A stretch of DNA of 44,176 nt, from the IMG/VR virus record IMGVR_UViG_3300046025_000011, positions 1 through 44,176 of that record. One strand, given 5' to 3'. The translations under genes were made by a program, and so were the position numbers. This stretch comes from a virus. Taxonomy: Duplodnaviria > Caudoviricetes. Below, piece after piece: positions 1 through 44,176 of this stretch. Within the stretch, counting starts at the first letter, position 1. Every line of letters starts with the position of its first letter. The notes beneath the pieces were generated by a model that saw nothing but the letters and a program-made list of their open reading frames with translations, was not told where the DNA came from and did not search any database.

Positions 1-27
1 CGGAGCTGATGACTATGACTGACACGG
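1..27. repeat. Terminal direct repeat / circular overlap, left copy
   Basis: cggagctgatgactaTgactgacacgg (1-27) matches 44150-44176 (cggagctgatgactaGgactgacacgg) at 26/27 positions. Confidence 0.9.
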
Positions 28-425
28 ACGATCCGCCAGACCTGGACCGCCTGGAAGAAGGCGACGACGTGAAGGTTCACTACCTGTCGAAGCGGTCGGG
101 AAACGAAGTGGACCGGACAGGCGAATTCGTGTTCACGACGTCGAACCCAGACGACGACACGACCCTGTTCTGGGTCCACACGGACCAGCCCAGCCCGCTA
201 AAACATCAGTACGTCGTCCTGTCCAAAGCCGAAACCACGGACGGCGACGACGTCGTCATCGCTACGTCCGCGACCGTCGCGGCGGACGACCCGAACGACG
301 GCGACCCGCCGCGTCCAGGAACCCATCACGCGGTCCAGTTCACTGCTGAACGGACGTCCCACCTGGGTATCGTGGACCGCGTGATGAAGAACGGCTGGAA
401 CATCAACGTCCAGGGTAGACGATGA
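15..425 (+). CDS. Hypothetical protein
   Basis: Acidic ORF. The ATG at 15 would overlap the end of the last gene across the circular junction; the ORF track starts it at 9. Confidence 0.75.
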   Translation: MTDTDDPPDLDRLEEGDDVKVHYLSKRSGNEVDRTGEFVFTTSNPDDDTTLFWVHTDQPSPLKHQYVVLSKAETTDGDDVVIATSATVAADDPNDGDPPRPGTHHAVQFTAERTSHLGIVDRVMKNGWNINVQGRR

Positions 426-796
426 CGGACCCGTCGCTGAAGTTCGCCCACGCGAACGTCGGCTACGTCCTGGACGGCCTGGAAACAGCGACCGTTCGCT
501 ACGGCCTGGACCGCGAAATCCAGGCGGACGACCTGGTCGTGTTCCTGACGCCGGGCGGCCAGCCGTTCGCCCAGGCGGTCGTCCGCGACGTCGTCCAGGT
601 TCCGGTCCGTCACGCCATGATGCCGCTACAGGCTGAAGCCCATCCGGCGGACGACGTCTTCGACCTGCTGGACCGCCTGAACGGACACTACGACGATGAC
701 CTGACGATGGACACGCCGGTCCAGGTCGTGAAATTCGACGTCCAGGACATCCCGCTGGAACAGCCCGTTGACCGACGACAGACTACTGACCCATGA
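422..796 (+). CDS. ASCH/PUA-like domain protein
   Basis: N-terminal LKFAHANVGYVLDGLETATVR resembles the ASCH F...I..G.KT.T.R signature; 124 aa; ATGA overlap with the upstream gene. Confidence 0.6.
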   Translation: MTDPSLKFAHANVGYVLDGLETATVRYGLDREIQADDLVVFLTPGGQPFAQAVVRDVVQVPVRHAMMPLQAEAHPADDVFDLLDRLNGHYDDDLTMDTPVQVVKFDVQDIPLEQPVDRRQTTDP

Positions 797-1089
797 ACCA
801 CGACGAAGCCGCCGAACTACGGGACGAACTGAACGACGTGGACAGCGTCGAAGGAACCGCCGACAGCATGACGAACGCGCCCTACCGCTACGCCCGCATC
901 ATCCAGCCGGGCTTCACGAACGGGAAACCTGAATACGGGGTGGTCCTGGACGCGGCGGCCCAGACCGCGACTTTCCCCTATATCCCGCGGGACGTCATCG
1001 ACGTCGTCACGGACGCCGCGCCGGACGCCTACATCCGGGTTGAACCGGAGGAAGACCGCATCCAGGTCAGGCGTCCGATGGATTCGTAG
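793..1089 (+). CDS. Hypothetical protein
   Basis: Acidic ORF with ATGA overlap. Confidence 0.75.
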   Translation: MNHDEAAELRDELNDVDSVEGTADSMTNAPYRYARIIQPGFTNGKPEYGVVLDAAAQTATFPYIPRDVIDVVTDAAPDAYIRVEPEEDRIQVRRPMDS

Positions 1090-1104
1090 GCGCGTTTCGT
1101 CTTC

Positions 1105-1122
1105 GGATTTACACTTAAGAGT
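1105..1122 (+). promoter_or_regulatory. Putative archaeal TATA-box promoter
   Basis: AT-rich gatttacacTTAAGag. The ~29-nt spacing seen at other promoters places the start site near 1144, just before structured element copy 1. Confidence 0.5.
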
Positions 1123-1147
1123 GAGGAACTCCCTACTCCCTGGTAAC

Positions 1148-1217
1148 GCCGTCTTACCGCCCTGGGTCACTACGGCCCTGGCGGGGCGGTCGCCCTGGGC
1201 CGGGCGCGAACGGTCCA
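1148..1217 (+). ncRNA. Structured leader element, copy 1 (hairpin plus H-type pseudoknot)
   Basis: ccgtc/ggcgg, ccgc/gcgg and ggtc/ggcc helices, then pseudoknot cgcc/ggcg with tgggccg/cggtcca; 22 nt before ATG 1240. Confidence 0.75.
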
Positions 1218-1239: not shown

Positions 1240-1674
1240 ATGACGAAGAACTACAAACCCGGTGAACTGCCGGGAGGATTTGAAGAACAGCTACAGAACG
1301 GATCGCCCTTCGCCCTGCTGGTCGCGGACCAGAACCTGTCGCGGCCCCAGGTTCTGGCGCGGATCGAAGACGCCGCCGGCGTCGATCTATCCAGCGCCCA
1401 GTCCGGCCACCTGACCCAGCAGGACCTGGCGCGACTGGTCCATCACCTGGACGACGACGCCCGTCCCGCGGACTGCCTGTCGCGTCACTACCCGAAGCGC
1501 GGGCTGGCCCAGATGGTCGCGGACGCCGCCGGCGCGAACATCGAAGTCGACGACGGCCAGGACGGCTTTCGAAAACAGCAGGCCATCCAGGTCTGGTTCG
1601 CCATCCACGCCGACATCAGCCTGGGGGACAGCCCGGACAGCATCACGACCGGCGACTACACGGTGGAAGCATGA
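1240..1674 (+). CDS. Hypothetical protein
   Basis: ORF directly after the leader element; codon usage typical of this genome. Confidence 0.75.
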   Translation: MTKNYKPGELPGGFEEQLQNGSPFALLVADQNLSRPQVLARIEDAAGVDLSSAQSGHLTQQDLARLVHHLDDDARPADCLSRHYPKRGLAQMVADAAGANIEVDDGQDGFRKQQAIQVWFAIHADISLGDSPDSITTGDYTVEA

Positions 1675-2198
1675 CGGGAAACCTACTGGCCCACGCCGCG
1701 GACTACTTCAAGTCCCGCGAAGTGATGGTCCGCTTCAAGGATGACGACCGCGGACGCTACGCGTTTACGTGCATGATGCCAGGCGTGGACGGCTACAAAA
1801 CGCCGATGGTCGTCACGGCGAAGAAGTACCTGGTCAACCGCGACGGCGTCCAGGTCGCGTCGTTCATGGAACGAAAGGTCTGTCAGCGCGCCAGCGACAT
1901 GGACGGGAAAGTCGTCCTGTTCGTAGGCGGAAGCGACCGCTGGCTGGTCTTCGATCCCGACGCCATTCTGGAACACGGCCTGGAACCGGACAGCAGATCG
2001 ACGCGGCGGAAGTCCGAAGACTGGCTGGACGTCCCGGCGGCCTGGGGCTGTCGCCTGGAATCCTATGCGGACCGGGCCGCGTCGCCCCAGACCGAACCGA
2101 ACGGACGCTGGCCGCCGACCCAGTCCGGGAAGCCGACCGCGGCGGACGGCGGGTCAGCTCCGGCTGGCGGCCAGCAGGGCCTGGACAGGTGGTCCTGA
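1671..2198 (+). CDS. Hypothetical protein, possibly a degenerate restriction-endonuclease-like fold
   Basis: ATGA-coupled ORF; the fold guess rests only on an alpha/beta pattern (MVVTAKK...VVLFV...WLVFDP). Confidence 0.6.
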   Translation: MTGNLLAHAADYFKSREVMVRFKDDDRGRYAFTCMMPGVDGYKTPMVVTAKKYLVNRDGVQVASFMERKVCQRASDMDGKVVLFVGGSDRWLVFDPDAILEHGLEPDSRSTRRKSEDWLDVPAAWGCRLESYADRAASPQTEPNGRWPPTQSGKPTAADGGSAPAGGQQGLDRWS

Positions 2199-3463: not shown

Positions 3464-4984
3464 ATGTCCCAGGAAGCTGTCGGGACCCAGTCCGACCCGG
3501 ACCACGATCCGGACGCGGACGACGTCTCAGACTGGAACCAGGTCGTTCAGGGGATGAACCTGGACGTCCTGCAGAAGATGGAACAGAACAGCGTCGATGC
3601 CGTGGTCACGTCCCCGCCCTACTGGGGACTCCGCGACTACGACGGCGCGGATGTCACCTGGCCGGACGGCTGGGAAGGCCAACTGGGCCAGGAACCCGAC
3701 GTCGATCTGTTCCTGGACCACCTGCTGATGGTCTTCGAAGCAGTCCGTCGCGTCCTGAAGCCTACCGGCGCGCTGTGGGTGAACATCGACGACAAATATT
3801 CGAACAGCGTCACGGGAAGCCAGCCGTCCGGAGCTGACGGACGCCCCAGCCGCGACGCGTCCGAACACGCCGACCAGGGCCTGGACTTCGCCGCGCCCTA
3901 CAAGTCCCGGAACGCCATCCCGGAACGCTTCGTCGTCCGGATGGTCCAGGACGGCTGGGTCTACCGGAACGACGTCGTCTGGAACAAGTCGAACGCCATG
4001 CCGGAAGCCGTGAAGGACCGCCTGGCGCGACGCTGGGAACACGTCTACCTGTTCACGCCGACGGCGGACACATGGTTCGACCTGGACGCCATCCGCCAGC
4101 CCCACGTCGAAAGCAGTCAGCGACGCGTCCAGCGGAACACCTCCGGCCAGCAGAAGAACCCCGCCGACGGGATGCCGGACGACTTCCAGGGCGGCGAAAA
4201 CGACGGCCTGACCGCCGGTTCGACCGACCAGTGGATGCATCCGAACGGGAAGAACCCCGGCGACGTCTGGGAATTCGCTACCGCGTCCTACAGCGACGCC
4301 CACTTCGCGGTCTTCCCCGATGACCTCCCCCAGCGCGCCATCCAGGCGACGACGCCGCCGAAGGTCTGTCCCCAGTGTGGAACGCCGTTCGAACGCGTCA
4401 CGGAGCCCGCCGACCCGTGGTCCATCGAAGCGACCGGCAGGCCCCAGGCCGTCCGCGCTGTCGAACTGGCGCGGGAACACGACCTGACCACCGACCACCT
4501 GGAAGCCATCCGCGCCCGCGGCCTGAACGATCCGGGCAGAAAGACCGAAGAAGCGCAGACCGGAACCGGGCGAAACACCGACGACGTCGAACGCCTGGCG
4601 ATGGAAGCGAAAGACGCCCTGGGCGGCTACTACCGTGAATTCACGGCGACCGGCGAAGTCCCCATCGGCTGGGAACCCGGATGCGACCACGACGCGACCG
4701 CCAGCGACGCACCCGCCGGAACCGTCATCGACCCGTTCGGCGGCGCGGGAACCACCGGCCTGGTAGCGAAACACCTGAACCGACGCTGGTTGACCATCGA
4801 AATCAGCGACGACTACGCCCAGCAGGCCCGCGACCGCATCAGCGGAAAGATGGAACGAACCAAACAGTCACGACGCCGCGCGGAACGCGTCCAGAAACAG
4901 GCCCAGGACGCCGGCCAGACCCAGGCGTCCCTGAACACCTTCCAGGACACGTCCACCGACGCGGACGACGACACGGACGCGTAG
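3464..4984 (+). CDS. DNA amino-methyltransferase (N4-C/N6-A family, beta-class motif order)
   Basis: Motif IV VVTSPPYWGLRDY near the N-terminus, HFAVFP, and motif I VIDPFGGAGTTG near the C-terminus; CPQC-containing insert. Confidence 0.92.
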   Translation: MSQEAVGTQSDPDHDPDADDVSDWNQVVQGMNLDVLQKMEQNSVDAVVTSPPYWGLRDYDGADVTWPDGWEGQLGQEPDVDLFLDHLLMVFEAVRRVLKPTGALWVNIDDKYSNSVTGSQPSGADGRPSRDASEHADQGLDFAAPYKSRNAIPERFVVRMVQDGWVYRNDVVWNKSNAMPEAVKDRLARRWEHVYLFTPTADTWFDLDAIRQPHVESSQRRVQRNTSGQQKNPADGMPDDFQGGENDGLTAGSTDQWMHPNGKNPGDVWEFATASYSDAHFAVFPDDLPQRAIQATTPPKVCPQCGTPFERVTEPADPWSIEATGRPQAVRAVELAREHDLTTDHLEAIRARGLNDPGRKTEEAQTGTGRNTDDVERLAMEAKDALGGYYREFTATGEVPIGWEPGCDHDATASDAPAGTVIDPFGGAGTTGLVAKHLNRRWLTIEISDDYAQQARDRISGKMERTKQSRRRAERVQKQAQDAGQTQASLNTFQDTSTDADDDTDA

Positions 4985-8811: not shown

Positions 8812-8974
8812 CTGTCTGTCGTGTGGCGGCGACGTCGTGGACGCCTACCGCCTGCCGGGCGGCGACGTCGTCCACGCCGCCGACGTCCCGTTCAGCGATG
8901 TACCCCAGGGCGTCGAAGCTATCCGGGTCTGTCGGTCGTGTGGGGACGAAGTCGGGGTGATGGACAGCCGATGA
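8804..8974 (+). CDS. 56-aa Zn-finger micro-protein (not in ORF track)
   Basis: MTDCLSCGG...VCRSCG...; its stop overlaps the TerL ATG. Confidence 0.7.
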   Translation: MTDCLSCGGDVVDAYRLPGGDVVHAADVPFSDVPQGVEAIRVCRSCGDEVGVMDSR

Positions 8975-10587
8975 CTGACGTCGACGATCGACGCCTGGTC
9001 ATCGACGCCGAAGCGGACAGCATCGCGGACGACGTCATCACCTACTACCAGCAGAACCCGGTGGACTGGCTGGAACAGGAAGCCGACCTGACGGTTCCGA
9101 AGAACCAGGGCGACCTGGTCCGGCTGGTCGCGGACGACGACACGAACCGCATCGTCGTGGTCAGTGGGAACGCGCTGGGAAAGACCATCGGGGCGACGAT
9201 GGCGGCAGGGTGGCATTTCAGCCTTCACTGGAACAGCCTGACGATGGCGACGTCTGGGAACTACGACATCCTCCGGGACACCTCCTGGCGGTTCCTGAAG
9301 TCGCTTCACAAGAACGCGAAGCGGGCCGCGTCCTGGCCGGGCGAACGGAAAGAGTCGCCGCCGCGGATCGAAATCCCGGACTACGAACAGTGGTTCCTTC
9401 GCTACCTGTCGCCCAGGTACGCGCGGAACCTGGAAGGGCGACACGCGCGAAAGGCGCTGGTCATCATCGAAGAAGCTGACAAGCCCGACATCACGGCGGA
9501 ACATATCGACAGCGCGGAATCGACGGCCAGCGACGCTGAAGACACGGTCCTGGTCCTGGCGAACCCGCCGGAAGACAAATCGAATTCTGTCTACGACCTG
9601 CTGGAAGACGACGCCTGGACGAACATCTACTGGGACTGGACGGACAGCCGGAACGTCCGACTGGACCTGGGCGAACTGGACGGCGACGCCCACGACCGCA
9701 TCCCTGGCGTGGTCGATCTGGCCCAGGTGAAGTCCGACTGGGAGAACTGGAACCGGCGGCCCTGGCCCGGAGCTGACGCGGCGGCTGTCGCCCATCCAGA
9801 CCTGGGCGGGGACCAGTATCGGAACCTGGACCCGCGCTGGTATCGGCGGCGGATGGGGCGGATGGCCCCGACGGGCTCCGCGACGCTTCGCCCCTTCTAC
9901 GAAGGCGACGTGGACCGCGCGGTGGGGCGCTGGGAAGACTGGATGGCCGCCGAACTGACGCGCCTGGAAGACGCCGGCGACCCAGACGTGGAACAGCATC
10001 TACGCGTCGGCGTCGGGGCCGACATGGCGCGCGACGGCGGCGACCGGATGGTCGTGGTCGATCGTCGAAGCGACGGCATCCTGAACACCTTCGCGGACCT
10101 TCAGCCGGGCGACCACAACGTCAGCGACACGGTCCTGGACGCCGCCGCGAACGCGGGCGCTATCGACGGCTGGTTCTGGATCGACGCGCTGGGCGAAGGG
10201 TCCGGGTCCGCCGACCGGGCGCGGAAGAAGTACGCCGCGGTTCGCCGGTTCCAGGCCAGCGACAAGGCCGAAGAAGAATCCGAATTCTACGACCGGCGGA
10301 CGGAAGCGATGTATCACCTGGGACTGAAGCTGAAGAACGACGAAGTCATCGTCCCGCCGAACAGCGACCTGGAAGACGAACTACGGGAGGCGGCGCGGAC
10401 CCTTCGCCTGGAAAAGCGGTCGCGGGGTTCGGACACGGTCCTGAACCTGAAGGGAAAGGACGACCTGAAGTCCAGCGCCCGGCTGGGGCGGTCGCCGGAC
10501 ATCCTGGACGCGGCGGCGCTGGCCTGCTACGAACCCCGCCCCCGGCAGAACTACACGGAACCGAACGTGGGCGGCGTGGTCGGCTGA
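8971..10587 (+). CDS. terL: Terminase large subunit
   Basis: Walker A SGNALGKT, Walker B LVIIEEAD, nuclease motifs GADMARDGGD and SPDILDA; ATG 8971 is the likely start. Confidence 0.9.
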   Translation: MTDVDDRRLVIDAEADSIADDVITYYQQNPVDWLEQEADLTVPKNQGDLVRLVADDDTNRIVVVSGNALGKTIGATMAAGWHFSLHWNSLTMATSGNYDILRDTSWRFLKSLHKNAKRAASWPGERKESPPRIEIPDYEQWFLRYLSPRYARNLEGRHARKALVIIEEADKPDITAEHIDSAESTASDAEDTVLVLANPPEDKSNSVYDLLEDDAWTNIYWDWTDSRNVRLDLGELDGDAHDRIPGVVDLAQVKSDWENWNRRPWPGADAAAVAHPDLGGDQYRNLDPRWYRRRMGRMAPTGSATLRPFYEGDVDRAVGRWEDWMAAELTRLEDAGDPDVEQHLRVGVGADMARDGGDRMVVVDRRSDGILNTFADLQPGDHNVSDTVLDAAANAGAIDGWFWIDALGEGSGSADRARKKYAAVRRFQASDKAEEESEFYDRRTEAMYHLGLKLKNDEVIVPPNSDLEDELREAARTLRLEKRSRGSDTVLNLKGKDDLKSSARLGRSPDILDAAALACYEPRPRQNYTEPNVGGVVG

Positions 10588-12528: not shown

Positions 12529-15153
12529 ATGTCCGACCAGTCCGACCAGGACCCGGACGCTGACCCTGCTGACGGCGACGCCGGAGCTGACGCGTCGGGC
12601 GTCGCTGTCGATGGCGTGACCGACGCCGACCACGTTCAGGGAAGCGTTCAGATCGACGGCCAGGAAGCGCCCGTCCACCTATCCGACGACATCGTGGAAG
12701 CAGTCGAACAGCGCGACGACGTCGATCTGGAAGACGTCGCGCGGGCCGCCGCCCCGTCGGACGGCCAGACAGACTTCAGCCTACGCGCCCAGACCGACGC
12801 CGGCGACACGCTGACCATCCCGGTCCACGACGTCCACGATCTGAACCTGACGCGGTCCGGCATCAACGGGCGGAACAGCTTCAGCCTGATAGGCGACGAC
12901 CGAATCGAAAAGCTGGAACAGAACAGCGTCACATACAGCGAACAGGTGGGCGACTGGATACTGGCCCGCGACGATCTGGTCCCCGCCATCAAAGAGCGCC
13001 TGAAGGCGCTGCTGATGGGCGAAGACGGCCTGCAGGTCGAACCGGAAAACCCCGGCAGTGACGCCGACAAGAAGCTGGCCGACCACCTGGAAGACGTCTA
13101 CAACGGCGGCGTCCGGCCCACCCAGGTCGTGGACACGATCCTGGACGAAAACATGAAGAACGCCCGCGTGGTCCTTCGCGCGACGGACCTTCAGCCCCTG
13201 GACCTGGGGACGCTGGACTACATCCGCGACGGCGTCACAGGAGAAGAAATCTACTGGCAGTCAGACACACGCGTCACGACGTTCGACATCCCGGACGACG
13301 CTGACGCGGACGACATCGAAGACATCGACCTGGACACGCGCGAAATCGACGGCCAGCCGCTGGTCATCGGGGACCACGTCTTCGACGTCAGCCTTTACGA
13401 AAAGCCGCCCCTGGAAGCGGTCGCGGACACGGTCGTAAACAAGAAGCAGATGCAACGCCTGAAGGCCCGGAAAGCCGAAATCGTGTCCTTCGGGGCCATC
13501 TACGCGAAGGTGAACCCACCGGACTACCTGCCGGAAGACGAATACTTCGACCGCGTCGAAGACGGCGACGGCGACCAGGTCACGAAGCTGGAACGCGCCC
13601 TGGAACAGAACCTGGACGCGGCGTTCGACTGGCTGAAAGACTACCAGTCCGGGACGACCGGGGCCATCCCGATGCACTGGGACCTGGAACAGCTTCAGAT
13701 GCCGGAAGGCGACGAACCCCTGGACGACCAAATCCGGGGCTACAATAAGGACATCAGCCGCCGCCTGCTGGTCCCTATCGACCTGATAGAACTACGCGAA
13801 GGGTCCGAACTGTCGCGGAAGACCCTGATGCAGACCCTACTGACGACCATCCAGGGCTGGCGGCAGGAAATCCTTCGCGTCTTTGAACAGTTCGCCCAGG
13901 TCCAGGCCGACGTTCACGACCTGAACGGGAGCGTCGAACATCAGTTCCCGCCGATGAACGACGCGAACGTGGAAGCCATCACGTCCCTGCTTCAGTACGC
14001 CGGCGTCCTGGGGGCGACCAGCGACGAACTTCGCCAGATGGTGAATCAAATCCAGGGCGTCGAACTGCCGACCGGCGACGACGTCGATGGGGACGGCGAC
14101 AGCGACCTTCCCCCGTCTGGCGGCCCCGACGACGTCGACGATCGACAGGACCAGATGTCCACCTTCCTGGACGACCAGAACCGGCGCGGGTCAGCTCCGA
14201 ACGACGACCAGCCGGGCGGTCAGGACGGCGACCAGGACGGCGCGGATCGCGACGACGACCCGGCGTCCGCGGCGGTCGCGTGTGGACTGCAGGCGGACGC
14301 GTTCACACCGCCCGAAGGGTTAGACCTGTATGAACTGGACGGCTGGGACCAGACGTCGGTCTGGCAGGCGTTCATCAGCCTGGGCGGAACCCATACGACC
14401 TGCAGTAAGCGGATGGCCGCTGAAGTTCGGAACGCGGACGCGTGGTGTGCCGCCCTGAAGGACCAGGCCCTGGGAACGGACCTTTGGCGGTCGGGCTCCG
14501 GGTCCGCGGTTCAGATCGACGCCAGCGCCCACTACGACGTCATCGAAGCCCAGGACTTCCAGATCGACTACGACGGGACGCTGTCCGACGTCGCTGACGT
14601 GGTCGCGGACGTCCTGTCGTCGAACGGCGCGGACGCTACCCGGTTGATGGAACAGGACGACTACGTCGCGTTCAACCTGGGCGATGCCGACCCGACCGAC
14701 GACGAAGCGTCCGGCGACTTCGAACCCGTCGCCATCGTCCAGGACACGGATGGCTTCCAGGTCACGGGACTGTCGAAGTCCGACGACGTCCTGGACGGCC
14801 TGGACGACGCCCTGCAGAACGCCCAGGCGTCGCTGACAGCCGCCCACGACTTCCAGGCCCCGTCCCTCCGGGAAGCCGCCCAGAAGACCCGCCGGGCGGT
14901 CGAAGACCAGCTACCCGGCGGTCAGACCGTGTCCATGAAGCGACGCGGTTCTGACCGGATGGCGGTCATCATCCACGACGGGGACGGGGACATCGCCGGA
15001 TCGCTGATGGTCCAGGAAAGCAGCGTCCGCCCGGACCAGTACCTGGTCACGGGAACGGACCGCTTCTTCCGTCATCTGTCCGACTTCCACGACCGCGACC
15101 GCCGGGCTGAAGGCGGCCTGCTGGCGTCCATCCGGTCGATGCTGGACCTGTAA
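12529..15153 (+). CDS. Putative portal protein with long C-terminal extension
   Basis: Position after TerL and before a MuF-like gene; helical core (YNKDISRRLLVPIDLI...); acidic linker then extra domains. Confidence 0.65.
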   Translation: MSDQSDQDPDADPADGDAGADASGVAVDGVTDADHVQGSVQIDGQEAPVHLSDDIVEAVEQRDDVDLEDVARAAAPSDGQTDFSLRAQTDAGDTLTIPVHDVHDLNLTRSGINGRNSFSLIGDDRIEKLEQNSVTYSEQVGDWILARDDLVPAIKERLKALLMGEDGLQVEPENPGSDADKKLADHLEDVYNGGVRPTQVVDTILDENMKNARVVLRATDLQPLDLGTLDYIRDGVTGEEIYWQSDTRVTTFDIPDDADADDIEDIDLDTREIDGQPLVIGDHVFDVSLYEKPPLEAVADTVVNKKQMQRLKARKAEIVSFGAIYAKVNPPDYLPEDEYFDRVEDGDGDQVTKLERALEQNLDAAFDWLKDYQSGTTGAIPMHWDLEQLQMPEGDEPLDDQIRGYNKDISRRLLVPIDLIELREGSELSRKTLMQTLLTTIQGWRQEILRVFEQFAQVQADVHDLNGSVEHQFPPMNDANVEAITSLLQYAGVLGATSDELRQMVNQIQGVELPTGDDVDGDGDSDLPPSGGPDDVDDRQDQMSTFLDDQNRRGSAPNDDQPGGQDGDQDGADRDDDPASAAVACGLQADAFTPPEGLDLYELDGWDQTSVWQAFISLGGTHTTCSKRMAAEVRNADAWCAALKDQALGTDLWRSGSGSAVQIDASAHYDVIEAQDFQIDYDGTLSDVADVVADVLSSNGADATRLMEQDDYVAFNLGDADPTDDEASGDFEPVAIVQDTDGFQVTGLSKSDDVLDGLDDALQNAQASLTAAHDFQAPSLREAAQKTRRAVEDQLPGGQTVSMKRRGSDRMAVIIHDGDGDIAGSLMVQESSVRPDQYLVTGTDRFFRHLSDFHDRDRRAEGGLLASIRSMLDL

Positions 15154-20136: not shown

Positions 20137-21231
20137 ATGACCTGGACACTTCGACAGGCGAACCTGCTTTCGCCCGACGCGATCCTGAACGACATCGTCC
20201 GCCAACTGAACCAGATGGAAGACACGGGTCGTCTCATCGTAGGCGACGTCTTCCCGATGGTCGAACTGTCGGACAGCAAGGAAACGTACTTCACCCACGA
20301 CGGGCTTCGGACCGGGATGGACCCGACCGCGCTGGGTTCGGAAAGCCCGGTCGGTGACATCGAAGACCTGGGGACCGAAGACGTCACGGTCCACACGTAC
20401 AAAAAGAAAATCCAGGCCGACAAGGGGGCCGATACGGAGCTGAACAGCCAGCAGGAAATCCTGAACCTCTACGAAGCCATCGTGTCCGCGCTTCGTGAAG
20501 ACGTCGTCCTGACGCGCGCGAAGGCCGCCTGGCAGGGCGACGCGAACATCGACGGCATCATCGGGGAAGACGGCGCGACGGCCCACCCTGACCTGGACAG
20601 TTCCCACGTCGTCACGCCGGGGACCGCCTACAGCGACACGGCGAACTCCACGCCCCTGACGGACTTCCTGGAAGCGGAAGAACGCATCAACCAGGACGGC
20701 GGCGACCTGGGCGCGGCTGGGTCCATCACGGCCTACGTGACGCCCAGCGAACTGACGGACCTGAAGCAGAACGACGACCTGACCGGGAAGTATCGGGACA
20801 TCGCCGCGCTTTCCGACGAACAGGTCGCGGAAGCCCTGCAGGTGGACCGCATCGTGACGGTCCGGACCCAGGTCCCCCGGAAGGACGCGAACGGGAACCT
20901 GGTCGATGAAAACGGGAACGTCGTGGAAGACGCGTCCAACGCGGCCCGCGACAACATCCTGGAACCCCACGACGGGGCGTCCAACGTCCGGAACATCGTC
21001 ATCATGGCCCCCGGTCAGGAAACGGCCTTCATGCCGTGGTTCGCCGCCCGGCTGGCCGAACGCGCGTCCGGCGTCGATCCGACCGGCGACTTCGCGGTGG
21101 ACATGACGAACGGTTGGATGTCCCAGACGTGGACCCAGCCCGATCCCGCCGTGTCCTGGTTCAAGGTCGCCCAGGAATTCGGCTTCCACGTCCGTCGCCC
21201 CGGAAACATCGTCGTCATCCAGGACATCTAA
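20137..21231 (+). CDS. Major capsid protein (HK97 fold)
   Basis: 364 aa at the expected position; C-terminal FGFHVRRPGNIVVI resembles typical capsid protein ends. Confidence 0.75.
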   Translation: MTWTLRQANLLSPDAILNDIVRQLNQMEDTGRLIVGDVFPMVELSDSKETYFTHDGLRTGMDPTALGSESPVGDIEDLGTEDVTVHTYKKKIQADKGADTELNSQQEILNLYEAIVSALREDVVLTRAKAAWQGDANIDGIIGEDGATAHPDLDSSHVVTPGTAYSDTANSTPLTDFLEAEERINQDGGDLGAAGSITAYVTPSELTDLKQNDDLTGKYRDIAALSDEQVAEALQVDRIVTVRTQVPRKDANGNLVDENGNVVEDASNAARDNILEPHDGASNVRNIVIMAPGQETAFMPWFAARLAERASGVDPTGDFAVDMTNGWMSQTWTQPDPAVSWFKVAQEFGFHVRRPGNIVVIQDI

Positions 21232-31802: not shown

Positions 31803-32333
31803 ATGGGAATTAGAAAAGTCTACCAACGGCTGGCTGTCACCGCCCGCCAGTATTTCGGTTCGGCCGAAAACGTCAGCCAGCGATACGACAGTGGCGCGGG
31901 ACAGTACGTCCAGCGGGACGAAACGAACGGCGTGGACCAGGTAATCATCCGGAACGGGAACGACCTGACCGACGAACTGGAAGAAAACGGCGCGATGGAA
32001 CTGGTCATCGGGAAACTTCTGAACTTCGACCCGAAGCGCGTAATCGTGGATACGCGGGCGAACCAGCCCGCCGCGGGGACCGCCGACCGGGTCATGTTCG
32101 TGACGGACGACCAGGTCCTGGAATACGACGACGGCGCGGCCTGGAACGAACTGGGCGCGTCCGCCGCGGCGCTGAAGGATGGCGGCGCGTCCGAACTGGA
32201 CGCCGCGGACCTGTCCGGCGCGGACGGGAACGACGGCCAGGTCTTGACCACGAACGGGGCCGCGGCGTCCTGGGCGTCGGCTACGGGTATCGGCGCGGAC
32301 GACGCGCTGGCATACGACTTCGTAATGAATTGA
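31803..32333 (+). CDS. Tail-fibre-like protein
   Basis: GNDGQVLTTNGAAASW fibre-type repeat; FVTD...YDDGAAW. Confidence 0.55.
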   Translation: MGIRKVYQRLAVTARQYFGSAENVSQRYDSGAGQYVQRDETNGVDQVIIRNGNDLTDELEENGAMELVIGKLLNFDPKRVIVDTRANQPAAGTADRVMFVTDDQVLEYDDGAAWNELGASAAALKDGGASELDAADLSGADGNDGQVLTTNGAAASWASATGIGADDALAYDFVMN

Positions 32334-32344
32334 GGTAAGTAAAA

Positions 32345-32653
32345 ATGACACAAGCAACCGTTGAAAACACTCCGGTCAGCATCCAACTAAATGAGGGCGA
32401 ATCGACGACCGTACCGAACGGCGAAACGTGGCGCGTGACCCTGTGCATGGGCCATTCCGGCACAAACGCCGACAATAATACTAAGGTAGATATTAATAGT
32501 ACGACAGTAATGGGAACGCGACAGGACAACAGTACCGGCTACGGCCACACGTCCGGTGACGTGATGGAGACCGTACTCACCGCAGGCGATTCAATCTCGT
32601 GTAGCGGTGGCTTGAACGGCGGCGTCCACATCGGCGGGTTTGTGGTGGCCTAA
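32345..32653 (+). CDS. Small beta-rich protein, putative receptor-binding tip
   Basis: TVPNGETWRV...LTAGDSI motif; lower GC and atypical codon usage. Confidence 0.55.
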   Translation: MTQATVENTPVSIQLNEGESTTVPNGETWRVTLCMGHSGTNADNNTKVDINSTTVMGTRQDNSTGYGHTSGDVMETVLTAGDSISCSGGLNGGVHIGGFVVA

Positions 32654-32655
32654 TC

Positions 32656-32889
32656 ATGTACGAGCGAGAGACCAATTCCGGGCACACGGTCAAATGGAAC
32701 CCGGAACATTCCGACCTGGCCGCCCAGGCGATGGCGGACGTAGCCGGTTCGGGCGTTTCGACCGCGACTGAAGCCCGTCAGAAGGCGAAGGTAGACTTCG
32801 GAGAGGACGCGGGCGGGTTGGCTCAACAGGTCACGGAGCGGTATCAGGAACTGGTCAATCAGCAGAAATCAACGTCATCCACGGCGTAG
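32656..32889 (+). CDS. Hypothetical protein (atypical composition)
   Basis: 77-aa ORF that uses GAG codons. Confidence 0.6.
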   Translation: MYERETNSGHTVKWNPEHSDLAAQAMADVAGSGVSTATEARQKAKVDFGEDAGGLAQQVTERYQELVNQQKSTSSTA

Positions 32890-35504: not shown

Positions 35505-36362
35505 ATGAACATCGGAAACACGGTCTACGAAATCGGCGGCCTGGAACAGACAGTTCGAACGTGGAAGATCGAAGACGTGGTCCGCGGCGACAGTGACGAC
35601 CCGTATTGGTGGGTCATCATGACCAGCGACCAGTTCCGCGTCATCGTGAAGGAACAGGACCTGAAGGCCCGCCTGGCCGAACAGAAATCCCGCGACGAAC
35701 TGACGGGACCGACGGACACACGGGACAAGGGCCGATGGCGGACGTTCAACCCCCGCCGGCGCGGCCAGGGCATCGTCCCCGCGGAACCGGACACGGACTT
35801 CGACCGAATCGACCGCGCCCTGTCCCCGCGCCGGGGGTCAGACCTGGACTTCGAACGGACACGCGATCTGTCCACGGTAAACGACTTCCTGGACCACCCC
35901 GCGCTGGTCAGCCATGACCTGGGCGGGACGAACTTCCCGGTCGCCATCTTCACCGCGCGGTCGCCCTACGACGGAAGCATCGTCGGAACGGTTGTCCTGA
36001 AGAAGCCGTCCGCCCGCGCCCTGGACGACTGGGAAGACGGCGGCCCCCACAACGGCGGCGATGGAACGCGGGTCGAAGTCGCCCGCCTGGCGACCCGCGT
36101 GGATCGACCAGCGAACACGGCGTCCTGGATGCTGGCCCGCTCCGCCCGCTGGGCCGACCAGCAGGGCTTCGGCATCATCCAGGCATACGCCGGAATGGCA
36201 AACAACCGCGGAACCTGCTACGACGCCGCCGGTTTCGACGTCCAGGCGACGGACGCTGAAGCGGACGGGGCGGCCTGGAACAGCGCGGATGACCGCGACG
36301 GACGCGTGGTCGTTCAGGACGGCGGAACCTGGACGCGACGCCGCTGGGAACGCGACCTATGA
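35505..36362 (+). CDS. Mom-like GNAT-fold DNA-modification protein
   Basis: VEVARLA...PANTASWMLARS...IQAYAG...GTCYDAAGF matches the Mom/XF1762-type EL.RL...N..S.....YAD....G..Y.AA.F pattern. Confidence 0.7.
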   Translation: MNIGNTVYEIGGLEQTVRTWKIEDVVRGDSDDPYWWVIMTSDQFRVIVKEQDLKARLAEQKSRDELTGPTDTRDKGRWRTFNPRRRGQGIVPAEPDTDFDRIDRALSPRRGSDLDFERTRDLSTVNDFLDHPALVSHDLGGTNFPVAIFTARSPYDGSIVGTVVLKKPSARALDDWEDGGPHNGGDGTRVEVARLATRVDRPANTASWMLARSARWADQQGFGIIQAYAGMANNRGTCYDAAGFDVQATDAEADGAAWNSADDRDGRVVVQDGGTWTRRRWERDL

Positions 36363-37543
36363 CTGACGACGACATCATCACGACCCGCGACCAGTACGGC
36401 CTGGACCACGACCTAAGCGACGTTCGATTCTACTGGGGCGTCGCATCAGGCGGGACCCACGCGGCGCTGTCCCGCGCGGTCGACGACGACAGCCTGCCGG
36501 ACCCGGACCACCTGATGGTTTCCTGGATGACGGCGATGAACGGCGTCTGGGAAGGCCCGGCGTGGTTCATCGACAGCGGCGGGGCTCCGGACACGATAAA
36601 GGCAAACGGCGGTCATCCGAAGCCCATCAGCGACCACCTGGACTACCTGGAAACCCCGCCGACGAAGTACGGGTCCGATCCGGAAGACGTCCAAATAGAC
36701 CGCTTCGCCCTTCGGGACTGGCCGTGTGAACCCGCGGTCCGCGACGAACTGGGGCTGACGGTCGAAGAACTACAGCAGAAGACCCTGGACGACCATATCC
36801 GGATGCTGGAAGCCGCCGACGGGCGCGACATCGACGCCCGGCCCGTCGCGGTCCTGCAGGGCTGGACGCCCGACGACTACCTGGACTGTCTGGACCTGTT
36901 CCGCGACCACGGCCTGGTTACGGACGCCATCGGCCTGGGTTCCGTGTGTAGGCGCGGCGGCCTGGATGACATCCAGGACATCGCCCACCGCGTCCGCCGG
37001 AACCTCCCTCCGCGCGTCGATCTACACGGCTTCGGCCTGAAGCAGTCGATGCTGGAACAGCCGGATGCCCTGGACGTCTTCGACAGCGTGGACAGCGCGG
37101 CCTGGGAAAACACACTACGGCAGGCGACCCGCGACGGCATCGACAAGGCCCCGCCCCAGCCGGACCTGACCTACCAGGACTGGGACGACTGGGACGACCG
37201 CGGAAACCCGCGCTACACGTTCGGGAACGTTCAGACCTGCTTCGACGGCTACGCGGCGAAGGTGAACGGCATCCGCGCGTCGAACGGGAAGGACGCGCGG
37301 ATCGTGGACCTGGCCGACTGGCCCGCGGTCATCGACCGCCTGGACGGCGACGGAACGGACGGCTACCCACTGCTGAAGTGTGTCTGTGGGACCATCGTCG
37401 ATCCAGGCCGTCCGGACCCTGGCCCGGACGTCGGCTGTCGTCACTGCCAGATGGCCGCGGTGAACATTTGGGACCGACACGTCGCCCACCGGGACCAGAC
37501 GCTTCACGGCGACTACCCGGACACGGACCTGCCGACGCCGTGA
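36359..37543 (+). CDS. TGT-fold, DpdA-like 7-deazaguanine DNA transglycosylase
   Basis: FIDSGG, DWPCEP, VLQGW, GLGSVCRR, LHGFGLK and DSVDSAAW motifs in TGT/DpdA order; C-terminal CVC...CRHC. Confidence 0.8.
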   Translation: MTDDDIITTRDQYGLDHDLSDVRFYWGVASGGTHAALSRAVDDDSLPDPDHLMVSWMTAMNGVWEGPAWFIDSGGAPDTIKANGGHPKPISDHLDYLETPPTKYGSDPEDVQIDRFALRDWPCEPAVRDELGLTVEELQQKTLDDHIRMLEAADGRDIDARPVAVLQGWTPDDYLDCLDLFRDHGLVTDAIGLGSVCRRGGLDDIQDIAHRVRRNLPPRVDLHGFGLKQSMLEQPDALDVFDSVDSAAWENTLRQATRDGIDKAPPQPDLTYQDWDDWDDRGNPRYTFGNVQTCFDGYAAKVNGIRASNGKDARIVDLADWPAVIDRLDGDGTDGYPLLKCVCGTIVDPGRPDPGPDVGCRHCQMAAVNIWDRHVAHRDQTLHGDYPDTDLPTP

Positions 37544-37919: not shown

Positions 37920-37932
37920 CCTTTTCGAAATC

Positions 37933-38517: not shown

Positions 38518-38519
38518 CG

Positions 38520-38858: not shown

Positions 38859-38873
38859 GTCCCGCGTCGATCT

Positions 38874-38952: not shown

Positions 38953-38966
38953 TCGACGATCGAAAC

Positions 38967-40837: not shown

Positions 40838-40914
40838 CCGTCTAACCGTCCACGGTCAGCCGCGACTACTGACCTGGCGGGGCGGTCGCCCGCGGGCTGG
40901 GCGTCAAACAGTCC
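40838..40914 (+). ncRNA. Structured leader element, copy 5
   Basis: ggtcag/ctgacc hairpin; pseudoknot cgcc/ggcg with gggctg/cagtcc; 13 nt before ATG 40928. Confidence 0.75.
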
Positions 40915-40927
40915 AGGTGTTAGAACG

Positions 40928-41560
40928 ATGCCAGACCACACGGCAGACTACGACGAAGGCGAACAGTACCACTTCAGGAACGACATCCGGCCCGGCGACG
41001 TCGTCCACGACCTGGCCCAGATGGGCTGGCCGCGGATGCGGGTCATCAGGCAGGAAGCCCCGTCCGTCGCGGACTACATCGACAGCCGCGGACAGGACCT
41101 TCGGGACTACGAAAAGAACGCGCTGGCCGGCGCTGACCTGGACGACCGCGTCTTCCTGACCACGTTCCTGACCGACAGCCCGATGAACGCCGCGAAGACC
41201 CACTACCCGATCCCGGAAAGCCGGATCGCGAAGCAGGACCTGACCAGCCAGGCGTCCCATATCGGGGACGACCCGGACCAGGTGTTCCATCCCGCGGACC
41301 AGGCGGTCTACGAATTCCTGGTCGCGCTGCTGACCGAACTGAAGACCGTCGTCAGCGTGGAGTACGCGAACGACGTCCGGTCCGCCGTGGACGAAGTCCT
41401 GGACCATCCGGAGCTGACCGACGCCGCCGACGACGTGTCCCACGCGCGGATGCGGGACCGCCAGGACCAGCAGGCCGACACGGACGACGACCAGGACCAG
41501 GACCAGGACGTCGACGATGACGGCTTGGGCGACTTCGAAGACTTCGACGGGGACGCCTGA
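40928..41560 (+). CDS. Hypothetical protein
   Basis: IRPGDVVHDL...YPIPESRI pattern, possibly SH3-like; acidic tail. Confidence 0.75.
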   Translation: MPDHTADYDEGEQYHFRNDIRPGDVVHDLAQMGWPRMRVIRQEAPSVADYIDSRGQDLRDYEKNALAGADLDDRVFLTTFLTDSPMNAAKTHYPIPESRIAKQDLTSQASHIGDDPDQVFHPADQAVYEFLVALLTELKTVVSVEYANDVRSAVDEVLDHPELTDAADDVSHARMRDRQDQQADTDDDQDQDQDVDDDGLGDFEDFDGDA

Positions 41561-41562: not shown

Positions 41563-41877
41563 ATGACGGGAACGAAGGACTTCGGGAAGATCGACGCCGA
41601 CCTTCGGGACGTCCTGGAAGACGTCGCGGACGACACGCTGGAACGGTCGTTCGGGTCGCTGAAGACGGCGTCCCACGAAGCCGCCATCTTCTGGCTACTG
41701 GCCCGCGGGGACGACGACGCCCTACAGGCCGCGCTGGACGCCCACGGCTACGACAGCGTGTCCGCGCTTATCGAAGCCGTCCAGGAACGCCAGTTCGGCG
41801 GCCAGTTCGACGCCGGGTTCAGCCCCCAGGACATCATCCAGACGCCCGACGACCTGGACGGTGGTCGTGATGACTGA
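41563..41877 (+). CDS. Hypothetical protein, possibly ribbon-helix-helix-like
   Basis: FGKIDADLRDVLEDVA...ASHEAAIFWLL; the fold guess is weak. Confidence 0.65.
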   Translation: MTGTKDFGKIDADLRDVLEDVADDTLERSFGSLKTASHEAAIFWLLARGDDDALQAALDAHGYDSVSALIEAVQERQFGGQFDAGFSPQDIIQTPDDLDGGRDD

Positions 41878-42250
41878 ACGCCTGGGAGAAACGACCATCC
41901 CGATGAAGGCAGAAGCGTTCCGGTCCGAACCCGACGGCTTCACTGGCGACGACGGCGACACGTTCACGGGCTACCTGAAAGGCCCGCGCGGCCAGTACCA
42001 CTACGCGTTCCCCGCGTCGTTCCGCTGGGTCTACGCGTGTCCGACGATGGACCTGGTCGCCATCGCCGTCCAGCCGTCCCTGAACGGTCCGCCCACGTTT
42101 CTGGCCTACTACCAGTGTGACGGCGGGGCCTACGTCCTGAAGCGGAACGCGCGGAACGACACGCGCGGGTCGGAAGCCGACGTCGATCTGGACGGCTTTC
42201 TGGACGACGACCACACGGTCCTATGGACCAGGGACCAGGGGGACGACTGA
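41870..42250 (+). CDS. Hypothetical protein
   Basis: MTERLGETTIPM...; coupled to both neighbours. Confidence 0.7.
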   Translation: MTERLGETTIPMKAEAFRSEPDGFTGDDGDTFTGYLKGPRGQYHYAFPASFRWVYACPTMDLVAIAVQPSLNGPPTFLAYYQCDGGAYVLKRNARNDTRGSEADVDLDGFLDDDHTVLWTRDQGDD

Positions 42251-42540
42251 TGTCCGCCCGGCTGACCGAAACCCACGGCGACACGATCCGGGACCTGGTC
42301 CCGGACGACCTGGCGGACATCCAGGCCGACGCCTACCGCGACGGCGAAGACGCCGACTTGTGGGCGTCCGACATCCCGGTCTGTGTGAACTGCCAGTCCG
42401 CGAACCTGGCGGCCTACGGTGGCGGGAAGCAGGTCGTCCGCGTGAACGGCGTGGACCTGGTAGCCGACCAGTGTCACGACTGCGACCAGATGACCGTCCA
42501 GGTCCTGGACGTTCACGACCAGGACAAGGGGGACGACTGA
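42250..42540 (+). CDS. Zn-ribbon protein
   Basis: CVNC...CHDC; TGATG overlaps. Confidence 0.7.
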   Translation: MSARLTETHGDTIRDLVPDDLADIQADAYRDGEDADLWASDIPVCVNCQSANLAAYGGGKQVVRVNGVDLVADQCHDCDQMTVQVLDVHDQDKGDD

Positions 42541-43268
42541 TGGTCATCAGCTTCAGCGACGACACGGCGTTCGGTTTCCTGGCCGACGAAGGCTTCGTGG
42601 TCACGGCCCGCGCGTCCCGACGCGCGAACCCGAACAGCCCGACGTGGGCGAACCGCGGACGCGGTCAGGAAAAGGTCGCGGACGTGAACGTGTTCGAACT
42701 GGGCGACCCAGTCGATCCCCTGGACCGCGGCATCGACCGGCTAGCTCCGTTCAGCGGGTTCGACAGCGGCGACGCCTGGCGGCAGGCGATGCGGGACCTG
42801 AACGACGGGTTTCCGGACCAGGTCTGGCTTTACTTCGTGTCCATCGACCAGTGGGCCGAAGAAGCCCAGGGCGAAGCGCGGCTGGTCACGGACGGCGGCC
42901 ATCCTGGCGACCACGTCGTGGTCGGGTCCTGGAACGACATCGACGACGCGCCGGGCGTCGTGTCCGGACGGGACAAGGACCTGGTCGCCAGCGTGTTCCG
43001 GGACCAGAACTGGACCTACGTCGTCTGGATACCGGACTTCATCCTGGACGACGCGGATCGCGACGTCGATCTGGTCGAAAGCAGTGACCACCTGGCCGCC
43101 GGGGGAGTCAGCGACTACAGCGACAAAGCCTGGAAGTTCAGCCAGCCCTACCGGGAAACCGCGACCGACGACGCGACCAGCTTCCTGCCGAAGTCCCAGG
43201 TCGTAGTCTTCGAACGACTGGACGACCTGGACCTGAACACGCCCCAGCAGGGGCTGACGGACTTCTGA
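42540..43268 (+). CDS. Two-domain protein, N-terminal ASCH/PUA-like domain
   Basis: ISFS....FL..EGFVVTAR...SGFDSGDAW...VWLYFV; LVTDGG linker, then a second domain. Confidence 0.55.
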   Translation: MVISFSDDTAFGFLADEGFVVTARASRRANPNSPTWANRGRGQEKVADVNVFELGDPVDPLDRGIDRLAPFSGFDSGDAWRQAMRDLNDGFPDQVWLYFVSIDQWAEEAQGEARLVTDGGHPGDHVVVGSWNDIDDAPGVVSGRDKDLVASVFRDQNWTYVVWIPDFILDDADRDVDLVESSDHLAAGGVSDYSDKAWKFSQPYRETATDDATSFLPKSQVVVFERLDDLDLNTPQQGLTDF

Positions 43269-43270
43269 CC

Positions 43271-43843
43271 ATGACCAGCGAAGACACGATCCACGACAGC
43301 GACAGCATCACGCGGACGAAGACCGCGCTGGTCCTGGACCTGGCCGACGGGCGGACGGTCGAACTGACCGCCCACGTCGCTACGCCGCGCGACGACGGCC
43401 TACGCGGGATGGAACCCAGGGACCGGAAGTCCGAAACCCAGGCTGGCTTCCAGGCCGGCCCGGCGACGCTGATACTCCGCGACCTGGACGGCGAAGACGC
43501 CGACCCTATCGGCCTACTGCCGGTCGATCTGCAGGCCGACATCGACGCCCCGGATGACTGGCGACGCCTGGACGACGACGAAGTCGGGAAGCGCATCTGT
43601 CCCGACCCGTCTATCCTGGGGCCGGTGTTCGAACACGACAGCGGCGAAGCCTGGCTACAGATCGAACGGAAGTTCCAGGACGGCAGGCCGCGGTTCCGCG
43701 TCTACATAGAAGCCGGCGACCCGTCGTCCGGCATCTGGCCGGTCGAAGAACGCGACCGCGGCCAGAACCACGACCAGGTCGCTGCTGACGCGCGGAGCCT
43801 GATGCAGAACTACGACCACGACGCCGGGGGCGACGATGACTGA
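43271..43843 (+). CDS. Hypothetical protein
   Basis: Acidic ORF. Confidence 0.75.
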   Translation: MTSEDTIHDSDSITRTKTALVLDLADGRTVELTAHVATPRDDGLRGMEPRDRKSETQAGFQAGPATLILRDLDGEDADPIGLLPVDLQADIDAPDDWRRLDDDEVGKRICPDPSILGPVFEHDSGEAWLQIERKFQDGRPRFRVYIEAGDPSSGIWPVEERDRGQNHDQVAADARSLMQNYDHDAGGDDD

Positions 43844-44165
43844 CGTCGCCCTGCTGGCCGGGACCGCGGTCGTCCTGGTCGCCATCACGGGCGTCCTGGC
43901 CTACAAGGCGGGGAAGAACGACGCCGACGCCCCGCCGGTCCTGGTCCCACTGGACTACGACCCGGACTCCCACTACGGCGACCACGTCATCGTCGCCCGC
44001 GTGAAGTACGACCAGACCGGGAACCGCGAAACGCTGGCCGTCCTGGACGATGGCCGGTCTGACCACGAAGCGAAGCAGGCCATCCAGAACCAGGTCCGCG
44101 GCGTCGAAGTCGACGAACTGATAGACACGCCGCTTAACGAATGCGGACCCGGAGCTGATGACTAG
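43836..44165 (+). CDS. Membrane-anchored hypothetical protein
   Basis: N-terminal hydrophobic helix; the stop position depends on the mismatched base in the terminal repeat. Confidence 0.7.
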   Translation: MTDVALLAGTAVVLVAITGVLAYKAGKNDADAPPVLVPLDYDPDSHYGDHVIVARVKYDQTGNRETLAVLDDGRSDHEAKQAIQNQVRGVEVDELIDTPLNECGPGADD

Positions 44166-44176
44166 GACTGACACGG
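44150..44176. repeat. Terminal direct repeat / circular overlap, right copy
   Basis: 26/27 match to positions 1-27. Confidence 0.9.

Follow-up and report, generated by a model that had tools for sequence, protein, structure and literature searches.

Why should a virus of haloarchaea have removed almost every copy of an ordinary trinucleotide from its genome? The question is raised by the IMG/VR virus record IMGVR_UViG_3300046025_000011, a stretch of 44,176 bases (hereafter the window) that, judged by its genes, is apparently a complete haloarchaeal siphovirus of the HHTV-1 type. The plus strand of the window contains 61 GAG and 74 CTC, i.e., 135 sites, compared to 1,720 expected under a dinucleotide-based, first-order Markov model (ratio 0.08, z -38) or to about 2,312 when scaled to five non-avoiding haloviruses (ratio 0.06), and GAG/CTC is the most depleted among the 32 trimer pairs. 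These counts bear out what the original prediction had read by eye: in 52 hand-picked window genes, Glu is nearly always encoded by GAA (641 GAA, 28 GAG) and Leu by CTG (728), CTT (74) or CTA (66) and very rarely by CTC (24 of 906), the loss affects both strands, and CGAG/CTCG is nearly absent, with 5 sites genome-wide. In a protein-preserving null, 728 CGAG are expected where 1 is found (1 of 724 potential sites). Among the 135 survivors, 98 are GGAG and 31, which had also been noticed by eye, are GGAGCT/AGCTCC; retention of Shine-Dalgarno sequences was rejected as the cause of the GGAG survivors, few survivors being located within 25 bases of a start. The CTC in the C(UCCG)G loops of a leader hairpin (Table 1) accounts for 3 survivors. 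Survivor density is even along the genome, at 0–6 sites per kilobase (kb), the exception being an island with 13 sites within 0.5 kb, where 1.6 are expected (p about 1e-8, for a segment picked post hoc). The two open reading frames (ORFs) of this island have homologues in none of the 19 other genomes tested, and the island is likely to be recently acquired DNA in which the purge is still to come.

The loss is independent of the reading frame. In a shuffle test that keeps the codon usage of the genome constant, out-of-frame GAG is found 15 and 7 times versus 87 and 109 expected, and out-of-frame CTC 11 and 14 times versus 41 and 186, deficits that are not seen in the control virus G024 in the same test. 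The depletion thus persists after both the Markov and the codon-shuffle corrections, and is not limited to in-frame codons of the coding strand, the pattern that the original prediction had named as the mark of translational selection. Given that the loss is both out of frame and on both strands, it acts at the level of DNA rather than translation, as had been proposed, and has three of the features by which restriction-site avoidance is recognized (DNA level, both strands, frame independence). The acidic residues are shifted as well: the Glu fraction, E/(D+E), is 0.29 in the window and 0.27–0.34 in its subclade, compared to 0.46–0.52 in the HHTV-1 group (HHTV-1 itself, L011, with G009, G010, and G014) and 0.48–0.51 in controls, and at aligned positions of the window and HHTV-1, Asp in the window faces Glu 54 times versus 26 for the reverse (p 0.002).

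GAG loss is a trait of the HHTV-1-like clade. In a quick tree of capsid proteins, the clade (support 100) comprises 19 rows, namely the window, HHTV-1, and 17 others, several of which are near-identical and hence not independent. The observed/expected ratio of GAG is 0.02–0.50 in 16 of these 19 rows and 0.88–1.73 in the 10 rows outside; for whole records, it is 0.02 in G007, 0.15–0.18 in G001, G004, and G005, 0.16–0.22 in the HHTV-1 group, and 0.27 in G016. Outside the clade, ratios below 0.5 are absent from 75 terminase-related loci of haloviruses (minimum 0.84, median 1.32); six cultured haloviruses of other families, compared over stretches of 25–30 kb, span 0.85–1.68, and in 42 host loci the ratio is never below 1.10 (median 1.39). 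The ratio returns to 0.83–0.97 in the lineage of G011, G012, and G013, which is nested within the clade. The structural genes of G012 are those of the HHTV-1 group (capsid 79–83% and tail tube 74–89% identical to HHTV-1, G009, and G010), and it carries an integrase (42348-43589; E 6e-15) along with a different non-structural module. Its GAG share of Glu codons is 0.60, compared to 0.14 in HHTV-1, 0.01–0.20 in most avoiders, and 0.71–0.85 in five controls, and no strongly avoided motif was detected in it. G012 is a virus that has switched lifestyle in nature and in which the avoidance of motifs is fading. Weaker site avoidance in temperate phages is a published rule (PMC6286503, in the part drawn on here), and the corresponding expectation of stronger avoidance in non-temperate relatives holds in this one independent contrast, with lifestyles read from gene content. 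Taken together, the clade pattern and the rebound in the G012 lineage suggest that the purge is old, needs ongoing selection, and relaxes where the virus can integrate. As a genome, G012 (L077-L079) is chimeric, with HHTV-1-type virion genes joined to a module of integrase, HerA-like ATPase, and Hjc.

Each lineage retains GAG solely in flanking contexts of its own. We scored every position at which a synonymous choice makes GAG (Glu for the coding strand, CTN Leu for the template strand); flank effects are concordant between the Glu and Leu classes, and controls have none. Five rules (GAGNNS, KGAG, GAGY, GNNGAG, and TTNGAG) cancel the deficit in HHTV-1, the remaining Glu sites being 0.90 GAG, in keeping with a normal share of 85–90%; the context that HHTV-1 allows is YCGAGRNW. 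At its potential sites, GGAG is used in 0 of 617, TGAG in 1 of 398, and GAGNNC in 1 of 373; GGAG and GAGC have zero counts in the whole 49 kb, and GAG use in permitted flanks is normal. In G003, a YGAG rule nearly suffices (remainder 0.75), and in G016 the rules differ again from those of both HHTV-1 and G003. The strongest rule in the window is also YGAG, yet the rest stays at 0.07, and in G007, with 34 GAG in 47 kb, all flanks are at 0.01–0.04. Single hexamers tell the lineages apart: AACGAG is retained at 1 of 16 sites in the HHTV-1 group versus 44 of 68 in G016, GCCGAG at 3 of 46 versus 23 of 62, and ATCGAG at 156 of 241 versus 0 of 12.

The surviving GAGs are also constrained at a distance, in that they avoid T at 8–9 bases downstream of their A, at 0.43–0.82 of expectation in 12 of 13 avoider records (observed/expected 30/50 in the window, p 0.002; 65/152 in HHTV-1, 66/130 in G010, 64/114 in G014, and 106/173 in G016). 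The same measure is 0.96–0.98 in five control viruses, 0.91–1.05 with GAA as the anchor in the clade, and 0.84–1.07 at distances of 10–13. A scan of all trimer pairs at spacers of 4–9, compared to same-phase long spacers, revealed 27 bipartite holes when the HHTV-1 group was pooled, of which 12 are anchored on GAG (e.g., GAG-N7-TGG 6/51, GAG-N6-TCC 1/32, GAG-N6-TGC 0/15). In the unrelated halovirus Hardycor1 (L098+L112), 26 holes form a grid of CAC, GAC, GCA, CGA, CCA, and GAG half-sites, among them GAG-N7-TGG (0/21), GAG-N6-TGG (0/17), GAG-N6-TGC (0/14), and GAG-N5-GTG (1/23). There are 0–1 holes in G012, G024, G025, and CGphi46, with none in G012. For the window, where many patterns were tested at a threshold of p 5e-4, the holes fall on GCA, CAC, GAC, and CGA (e.g., GCA-N6-GT 2/23, CAC-N6-TC 12/43). 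The depleted trimers of the window (GAG, CAA, GCA, CAC) and of HHTV-1 (GAG, GAC, CAA) overlap the Hardycor1 grid. Thus, the geometry expected of type I site avoidance, with spacers of 5–7 bases and methylated adenines 8–9 bases apart, is present in the avoiders, G007 excepted. GCAB-N6-VTGC, which we take to be the type I motif of Haloferax volcanii, has 0 copies versus 14 expected in the window. GGAY-N6-TGG, a type I site measured in haloarchaea (PMC4752239 Table S4), has the same spacing and TGG half-site as the GAG holes, and GAG-N4-6 type I sites have been predicted in haloarchaea by homology (PMC6471742 Table 2). As an aside on Hardycor1, its grid of holes together with its CAG-core purge (0.28) amounts to a list of type I-like and interrupted-palindrome specificities.

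GAG is not the only word missing. Beside GCAC/GTGC, which is rare as predicted (17 versus 106 expected), the window is depleted in CAA/TTG (0.29) and GCA/TGC (0.44), two losses that had not been noticed before. CTAG, also predicted to be rare, does occur at 4 sites only, but it is rare in nearly all haloviruses (8 versus 21 relative to controls). TCGA (401) and ACGT (318) are common, as had been stated, whereas GATC, which had been counted with them, is moderately depleted (123 sites, 0.50 of the Markov expectation and 0.39 of controls). The 18 most depleted hexamers of the window include 13 six-base palindromes at zero copies, which had likewise gone unnoticed. A conditional codon model, applied to nine avoider sets, gave 9–38 strongly avoided words per set, among them palindromes, CANTG, CATTC, CCTTG, and CTGGAG, compared to 0 in G012 and 1 in G024; in HHTV-1, CATTC, CCTTG, and CTGGAG each have 0 copies. 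The HHTV-1 group has additionally purged GAC/GTC (0.13–0.20) and CAA/TTG. In this group Asp is shifted to GAT (GAC share 0.07–0.13), and G+C is down to 55–57%. Avoidance of protospacer adjacent motifs (PAMs) of CRISPR systems was considered and dropped because TTC/GAA, presumably a type I-B PAM, is enriched 1.6-fold in the window.

We consider it likely that the loss reflects cumulative selection by many methylation-based, restriction-type defences of the hosts that share a GAG core, in line with the purge of many palindromic and asymmetric restriction-type words from the same genomes. If the targets of these defences share the core, its loss would remove all of them at once, and a lytic virus that depends on host replication and moves among hosts would gain broad immunity by deleting it. 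The agents could be type I systems in which a GAG half-site recurs through the shuffling of HsdS domains, PglX variants of type 5 bacteriophage exclusion (BREX-5) that would read CTGGAG and probably NNNGAG words akin to it, type II enzymes (CTCGAG, GDGCHC), and enzymes that would follow the four-base rules (CGAG in the window; GGAG, TGAG, GAGC, and GAGNNS in HHTV-1). The state might be self-reinforcing: where few sites are left, a new GAG may be the sole target for some host system and be removed, whereas a virus with thousands of GAGs would gain little from losing one. Such feedback would account for the state having been attained in one clade and not in others. The cost would be recoding against host codon preference plus a shift of Glu to Asp and Gln. 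The data thus favour overlapping GAG targets, contiguous as well as type I-like bipartite, over a single short target; of the original proposal of a host defence with a very short non-palindromic target, the host defence is the best-supported part, and the one target gives way to many. Whether haloarchaea carry undescribed defences that read GAG words of three to four bases (CGAG, GGAG, TGAG, GAGC, GAGNNS) is a separate matter, which we regard as possible but doubtful.

Suitable machinery is present in the hosts. HsdS is encoded in 58 of 201 Halobacteria genomes, and 60 domains from 30 HsdS proteins fall into 46 clusters, several of them paired with new partners. BREX-5 PglX exceeds the cut-off in 25 of 151 genomes, with variable residues in its putative recognition region, and DUF1156 methyltransferases are found in 41 of 121. 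CTGGAG is a listed BREX motif (PMC10609329), and it is selectively missing, like CAGGAG, from the pooled, near-identical G001, G004, and G005 (4/43 and 5/33, respectively); in HHTV-1 (0/18) and the window (2/10), its loss is inseparable from the general loss of GAG. The string GAG does not occur in the supplement of the archaeal restriction-modification survey, and the one file searched of Table S4 of Blow 2016 has 7 haloarchaeal rows. Clusters of DUF1156 and BREX-5 genes are located in the haloarchaeal genomes G089:C30 (14132-26021), G131:C2 (134641-151861), G050, G147, G165, and G130, with up to three DUF1156 copies within 12–17 kb and paired pglX genes, and are candidate specificity cassettes.

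Several observations weigh against selection by many GAG-core defences. Every flank is depleted in the window and in G007, which a single three-base target fits equally well, and a likelihood test of non-additivity of the flank rules is uninformative, being significant in controls too. Most of the HHTV-1 loss stems from four-base rules, for which no documented haloarchaeal enzyme was found in the literature searched, and no more than a part of the loss can be put down to type I sites. G007 has no spacing dip (15/15, on 34 sites), the dip in HSTV-1, HRTV-4, and Hardycor1 is equal after GAA and GAG and so is not specific to GAG, and GGAY-N6-TGG is clearly depleted in none of 10 genomes tested (18/14 in the window). 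According to Rusinov et al. (2018; PMC6286503, in the part consulted), avoidance is generally absent for type I and IIG sites. HHTV-2, a virus of the same host species as HHTV-1, keeps GAG (1.60) and has 70 CTGGAG in 25 kb. The reversal in G012 is one event and is confounded with the replacement of the whole non-structural module, and L206, a locus of 6,963 bases (portal 49%) that belongs to the clade, has a GAG ratio of 1.47, i.e., no avoidance, which may represent a second reversal or a different lifestyle. Finally, no relative above 41% capsid identity was found in host genomes.

Instead of many defences, one widespread, undescribed host defence might read GAG plus at most one flanking base, the lineages having met variants of the enzyme. 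The uniform loss in G007, the near sufficiency of YGAG in G003, the near-total bans on single words (CGAG in the window, GGAG in HHTV-1), and the parallel four-base losses in Hardycor1 (CAGC 1/364, CCAG 8/345; see also PMC7911831 Table 2) all fit such an enzyme. HHTV-1, however, requires at least five separate rules besides independent purges of GAC and CAA, the allowed hexamers (AACGAG, ATCGAG) are all-or-none by lineage, and the holes at 5–7-base spacers need bipartite recognition, so that we deem a single enzyme unlikely. Mutation bias or translational selection would account for the most visible effect, that on Glu and Leu codons, but it is left with the out-of-frame and template-strand losses, the shift of Leu to CTG rather than CTT, the zero counts of GGAG and GAGC in HHTV-1 next to normal use in permitted flanks, and the rebound in G012, and is hardly credible; translational selection and viral tRNAs were rejected on the codon-shuffle deficits, given also that no tRNA gene was found in the window.

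The remaining explanations place the cause in the virus itself. A virus-encoded factor, most likely the Hjc-fold protein listed in Table 1, might cut or block GAG-rich host DNA, the virus having recoded itself to be spared. The gene is present in all 11 avoiders whose records include the region and was not found in G012 or controls; it is the sole non-structural gene with this distribution, with 41563-41877 close behind. GAG is the one core common to every avoiding lineage and is abundant in host DNA. The fold is nuclease-like: the model of the protein aligns with Hjc at a best Z of 7.4, a middling value (VIA-align; rmsd 3.4, 108 aligned residues), and D25 and K51 are conserved in 89% and 77% of 99 homologues, although the acidic residue of a (D/E)xK motif, two positions before K51, is missing (roles assigned by eye). 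A Foldseek comparison of the model with the PDB gave no match at E <=0.001. The family has 103 representatives, its alignment contains no stretch conserved enough for a scan of loci, and locus searches with single distant members returned one locus or none, and no cultured phage. Moreover, one protein would not explain bipartite holes, palindromes, and their recurrence in Hardycor1, a virus in which the gene was not detected, and the loss of the gene from G012 is confounded with the module swap. Because the family is wider than the clade, with a member (profile E 3e-38) in one unrelated, polymerase-encoding halovirus, L251, with a GAG ratio of 1.28, we judge such a factor to be quite improbable. 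Alternatively, the virus's own DpdA, Mom-like protein, or methyltransferase, all three of which are encoded in the window, could modify GAG, or a host enzyme could attack the modified form. Tolerance of GGAG is indeed found in the window, G001, and G004, which bear DpdA, whereas G007 and the HHTV-1 group, which do not, show none, and DpdA might modulate which flank survives. But among 25 related records, several of them incomplete, DpdA occurs in 2 and the N6/N4 methyltransferase family in 1, a non-avoider; the Mom-like protein occurs in 1 of 19 genomes; and G007, the strongest avoider, lacks all three. Closed-end records without DpdA and the N6/N4 family still avoid GAG (G005 0.16, G007 0.02, G016 0.27), as does HHTV-1 (0.22), and DpdA-bearing genomes still purge palindromes that contain GG. 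Furthermore, dpdA lies within an indel of 2.9 kb that distinguishes G001 from G005; the two are 86–96% identical in most blocks, and G005, which lacks dpdA, has the same GAG profile (GGAG 95/328 versus 103/381 in G001). On this distribution and comparison, the three enzymes were rejected as the cause, and the suggestion that modification by enzymes of the virus makes GAG costly is unsupported; we consider it very improbable.

Selection by many host defences with a shared GAG core can be set against the avoidance described previously. Rusinov et al. (PMC6286503, in the part drawn on) report avoidance of orthodox type II sites; the window resembles those cases in that short words are depleted on both strands alike, markedly in a virus that does not integrate and less so in a relative with an integrase. 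It differs in that the whole genome has lost an asymmetric core of three bases, that bipartite holes of the type I kind are present, and that Glu and Leu are recoded. The loss is a new, extreme form of restriction-site avoidance that bears the signature of type I half-sites. A further precedent is Hardycor1, for which strong avoidance of CAGC, CATC, and CCAG and the absence of palindromes have been attributed to restriction-modification (PMC7911831). Like the window, it is a lytic halovirus without a replicase that lacks palindromes and avoids non-palindromic tetramers; unlike the window, it belongs to another family, and its core is CAG, with GAG kept at 1.44. The passages on Hardycor1 in that paper describe neither a trinucleotide purge nor bipartite sites, and its GAG-N5-7 holes emerged in the present analysis. 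HHTV-1 (Madisaviridae), the nearest cultured relative, shares with the window the capsid, portal, and tail genes and the purge of GAG, but it keeps CGAGG, bans GGAG, and purges GAC (0.13) and CAA (0.15), whereas in the window the ban is strongest on CGAG, GAC is kept, and the terminase and tail-end module are different, with dpdA in addition. HHTV-1 is an outermost element of a 5-mer dendrogram (PMC7962313), and GAG loss is not named in the HHTV-1 passages of PMC3950731, PMC8651126, and PMC7962313; neither did we find a report of it for HHTV-1-like viruses in the literature searched, which did not cover the original HHTV-1 genome paper. In the available part of a study of MANTIS and type III systems (bioRxiv 10.64898/2026.09.23.753747), virulent phages likewise avoid asymmetric m6A targets, but those systems favour depletion on one strand, and the window is depleted on both. 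One-strand depletion was rejected for the window, where a strand-bias scan detected no biased 4- or 6-mer and one 5-mer.

If this reading holds, deletion of a short core common to a combinatorial family would be a route around defences whose specificity is regarded as changing too quickly for the loss of sites to help, and an exception to what has been published as a rule, namely that avoidance does not extend to type I and IIG sites. Codon usage in a halophilic proteome, down to its balance of Glu and Asp, would then be set by host defence rather than translation. From the flank tables and bipartite holes, target motifs of haloarchaea can be predicted for comparison with methylomes, and since both HHTV-1 and its host Haloarcula hispanica are cultured, a test system exists. 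Should defences that read three- to four-base words be real, their targets would be shorter than those documented, and a purged genome would be a readable list of specificities.

Table 1. Location of the features of the window referred to in the text.
Feature	Coordinates	Strand	Remarks
Whole IMG/VR virus record	1..44176	.	44,176 bases; GAG/CTC purged uniformly, one island excepted
Hjc/D212-like PD-(D/E)xK-fold protein, HHTV-1 gene 64 homologue	1671..2198	+	model predicted local distance difference test (pLDDT) 83.6
N6/N4 DNA methyltransferase	3464..4984	+	PF01555 E 1e-42; other avoiders lack it
Terminase large subunit, CGphi46/ChaoS9 type, not HHTV-1 type	8971..10587	+	
Probable portal protein	12529..15153	+	42% to HHTV-1; second tree marker
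Major capsid protein	20137..21231	+	55% identity to HHTV-1 capsid; clade-defining marker
GAG-rich island, two small ORFs (32345-32653, 32656-32889)	32330..32840	.	
Leader hairpin, 3 copies with C(UCCG)G loop	35411..35482, 37548-37619, 38872-38944	+	loop keeps CTC
Mom-like acyltransferase-fold protein	35505..36362	+	PF25680 E 1e-3, weak, below cut-off
DpdA-family transglycosylase (predicted 7-deazaguanine insertion)	36359..37543	+	PF23859 E 4e-20

The first 14 bases of the window are found again at about 44,150, so that the record ends overlap and the window is probably a complete, circularly permuted genome. Its G+C is 65%, and the encoded proteins are acidic. A Mu-F-like head protein, a tape-measure-like gene, and a tail tube (PF18906; 42% identical to that of HHTV-1) are present, and the portal was assigned from its position and its likeness to the gene that precedes the Mu-F-like gene of HHTV-1. 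The profile scan of the window gave no sheath match, a tail-tube scan gave no matches, and no polymerase or integrase was matched among the 50 ORFs scanned. HHTV-1 is matched at E 1e-4 by about 15 of the window's 55 ORFs, a share within the 20–50% of homologous proteins that members of the Madisaviridae have in common (PMC8651126, in the passage on this criterion); the capsid tree groups the two viruses, and the terminase differs. The replacement of the terminase, next to a portal, capsid, and tail that follow HHTV-1, is common to the subclade of the window. In a nucleotide search against cultured phages, ChaoS9 was the only match (65% over 600 bases).

The Mom-like gene, with a homologue in HHTV-1 only among the 19 genomes, is followed directly by dpdA. 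No preQ0 synthesis genes were detected in the window, and, by analogy with the proposal for HRTV-29 (PMC8651126), its dpdA would depend on a host precursor. HHTV-1 and several relatives encode PCNA, for which the window has no match. By eye, four non-structural proteins (the Hjc-fold protein, the methyltransferase, 42540-43268, and 40928-41560) end in a motif similar to what we take to be the PCNA-binding box.

Structured leader repeats, all on the plus strand, are located just 5' of small early-type genes; in addition to the three copies in Table 1, there is one each at 1149-1210 and 40838-40902. Rfam gave no match in 34900-39100. The conserved arms of the repeats pair to form a stem, at the apex of which sits a variable hairpin (fold z between -2.2 and -3.3 in three copies), with a loop that presumably belongs to the UNCG tetraloops, and the repeats are possibly a viral promoter, an antiterminator, or a regulatory RNA. 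Elsewhere, five weaker matches are found in G007 and two in G016.

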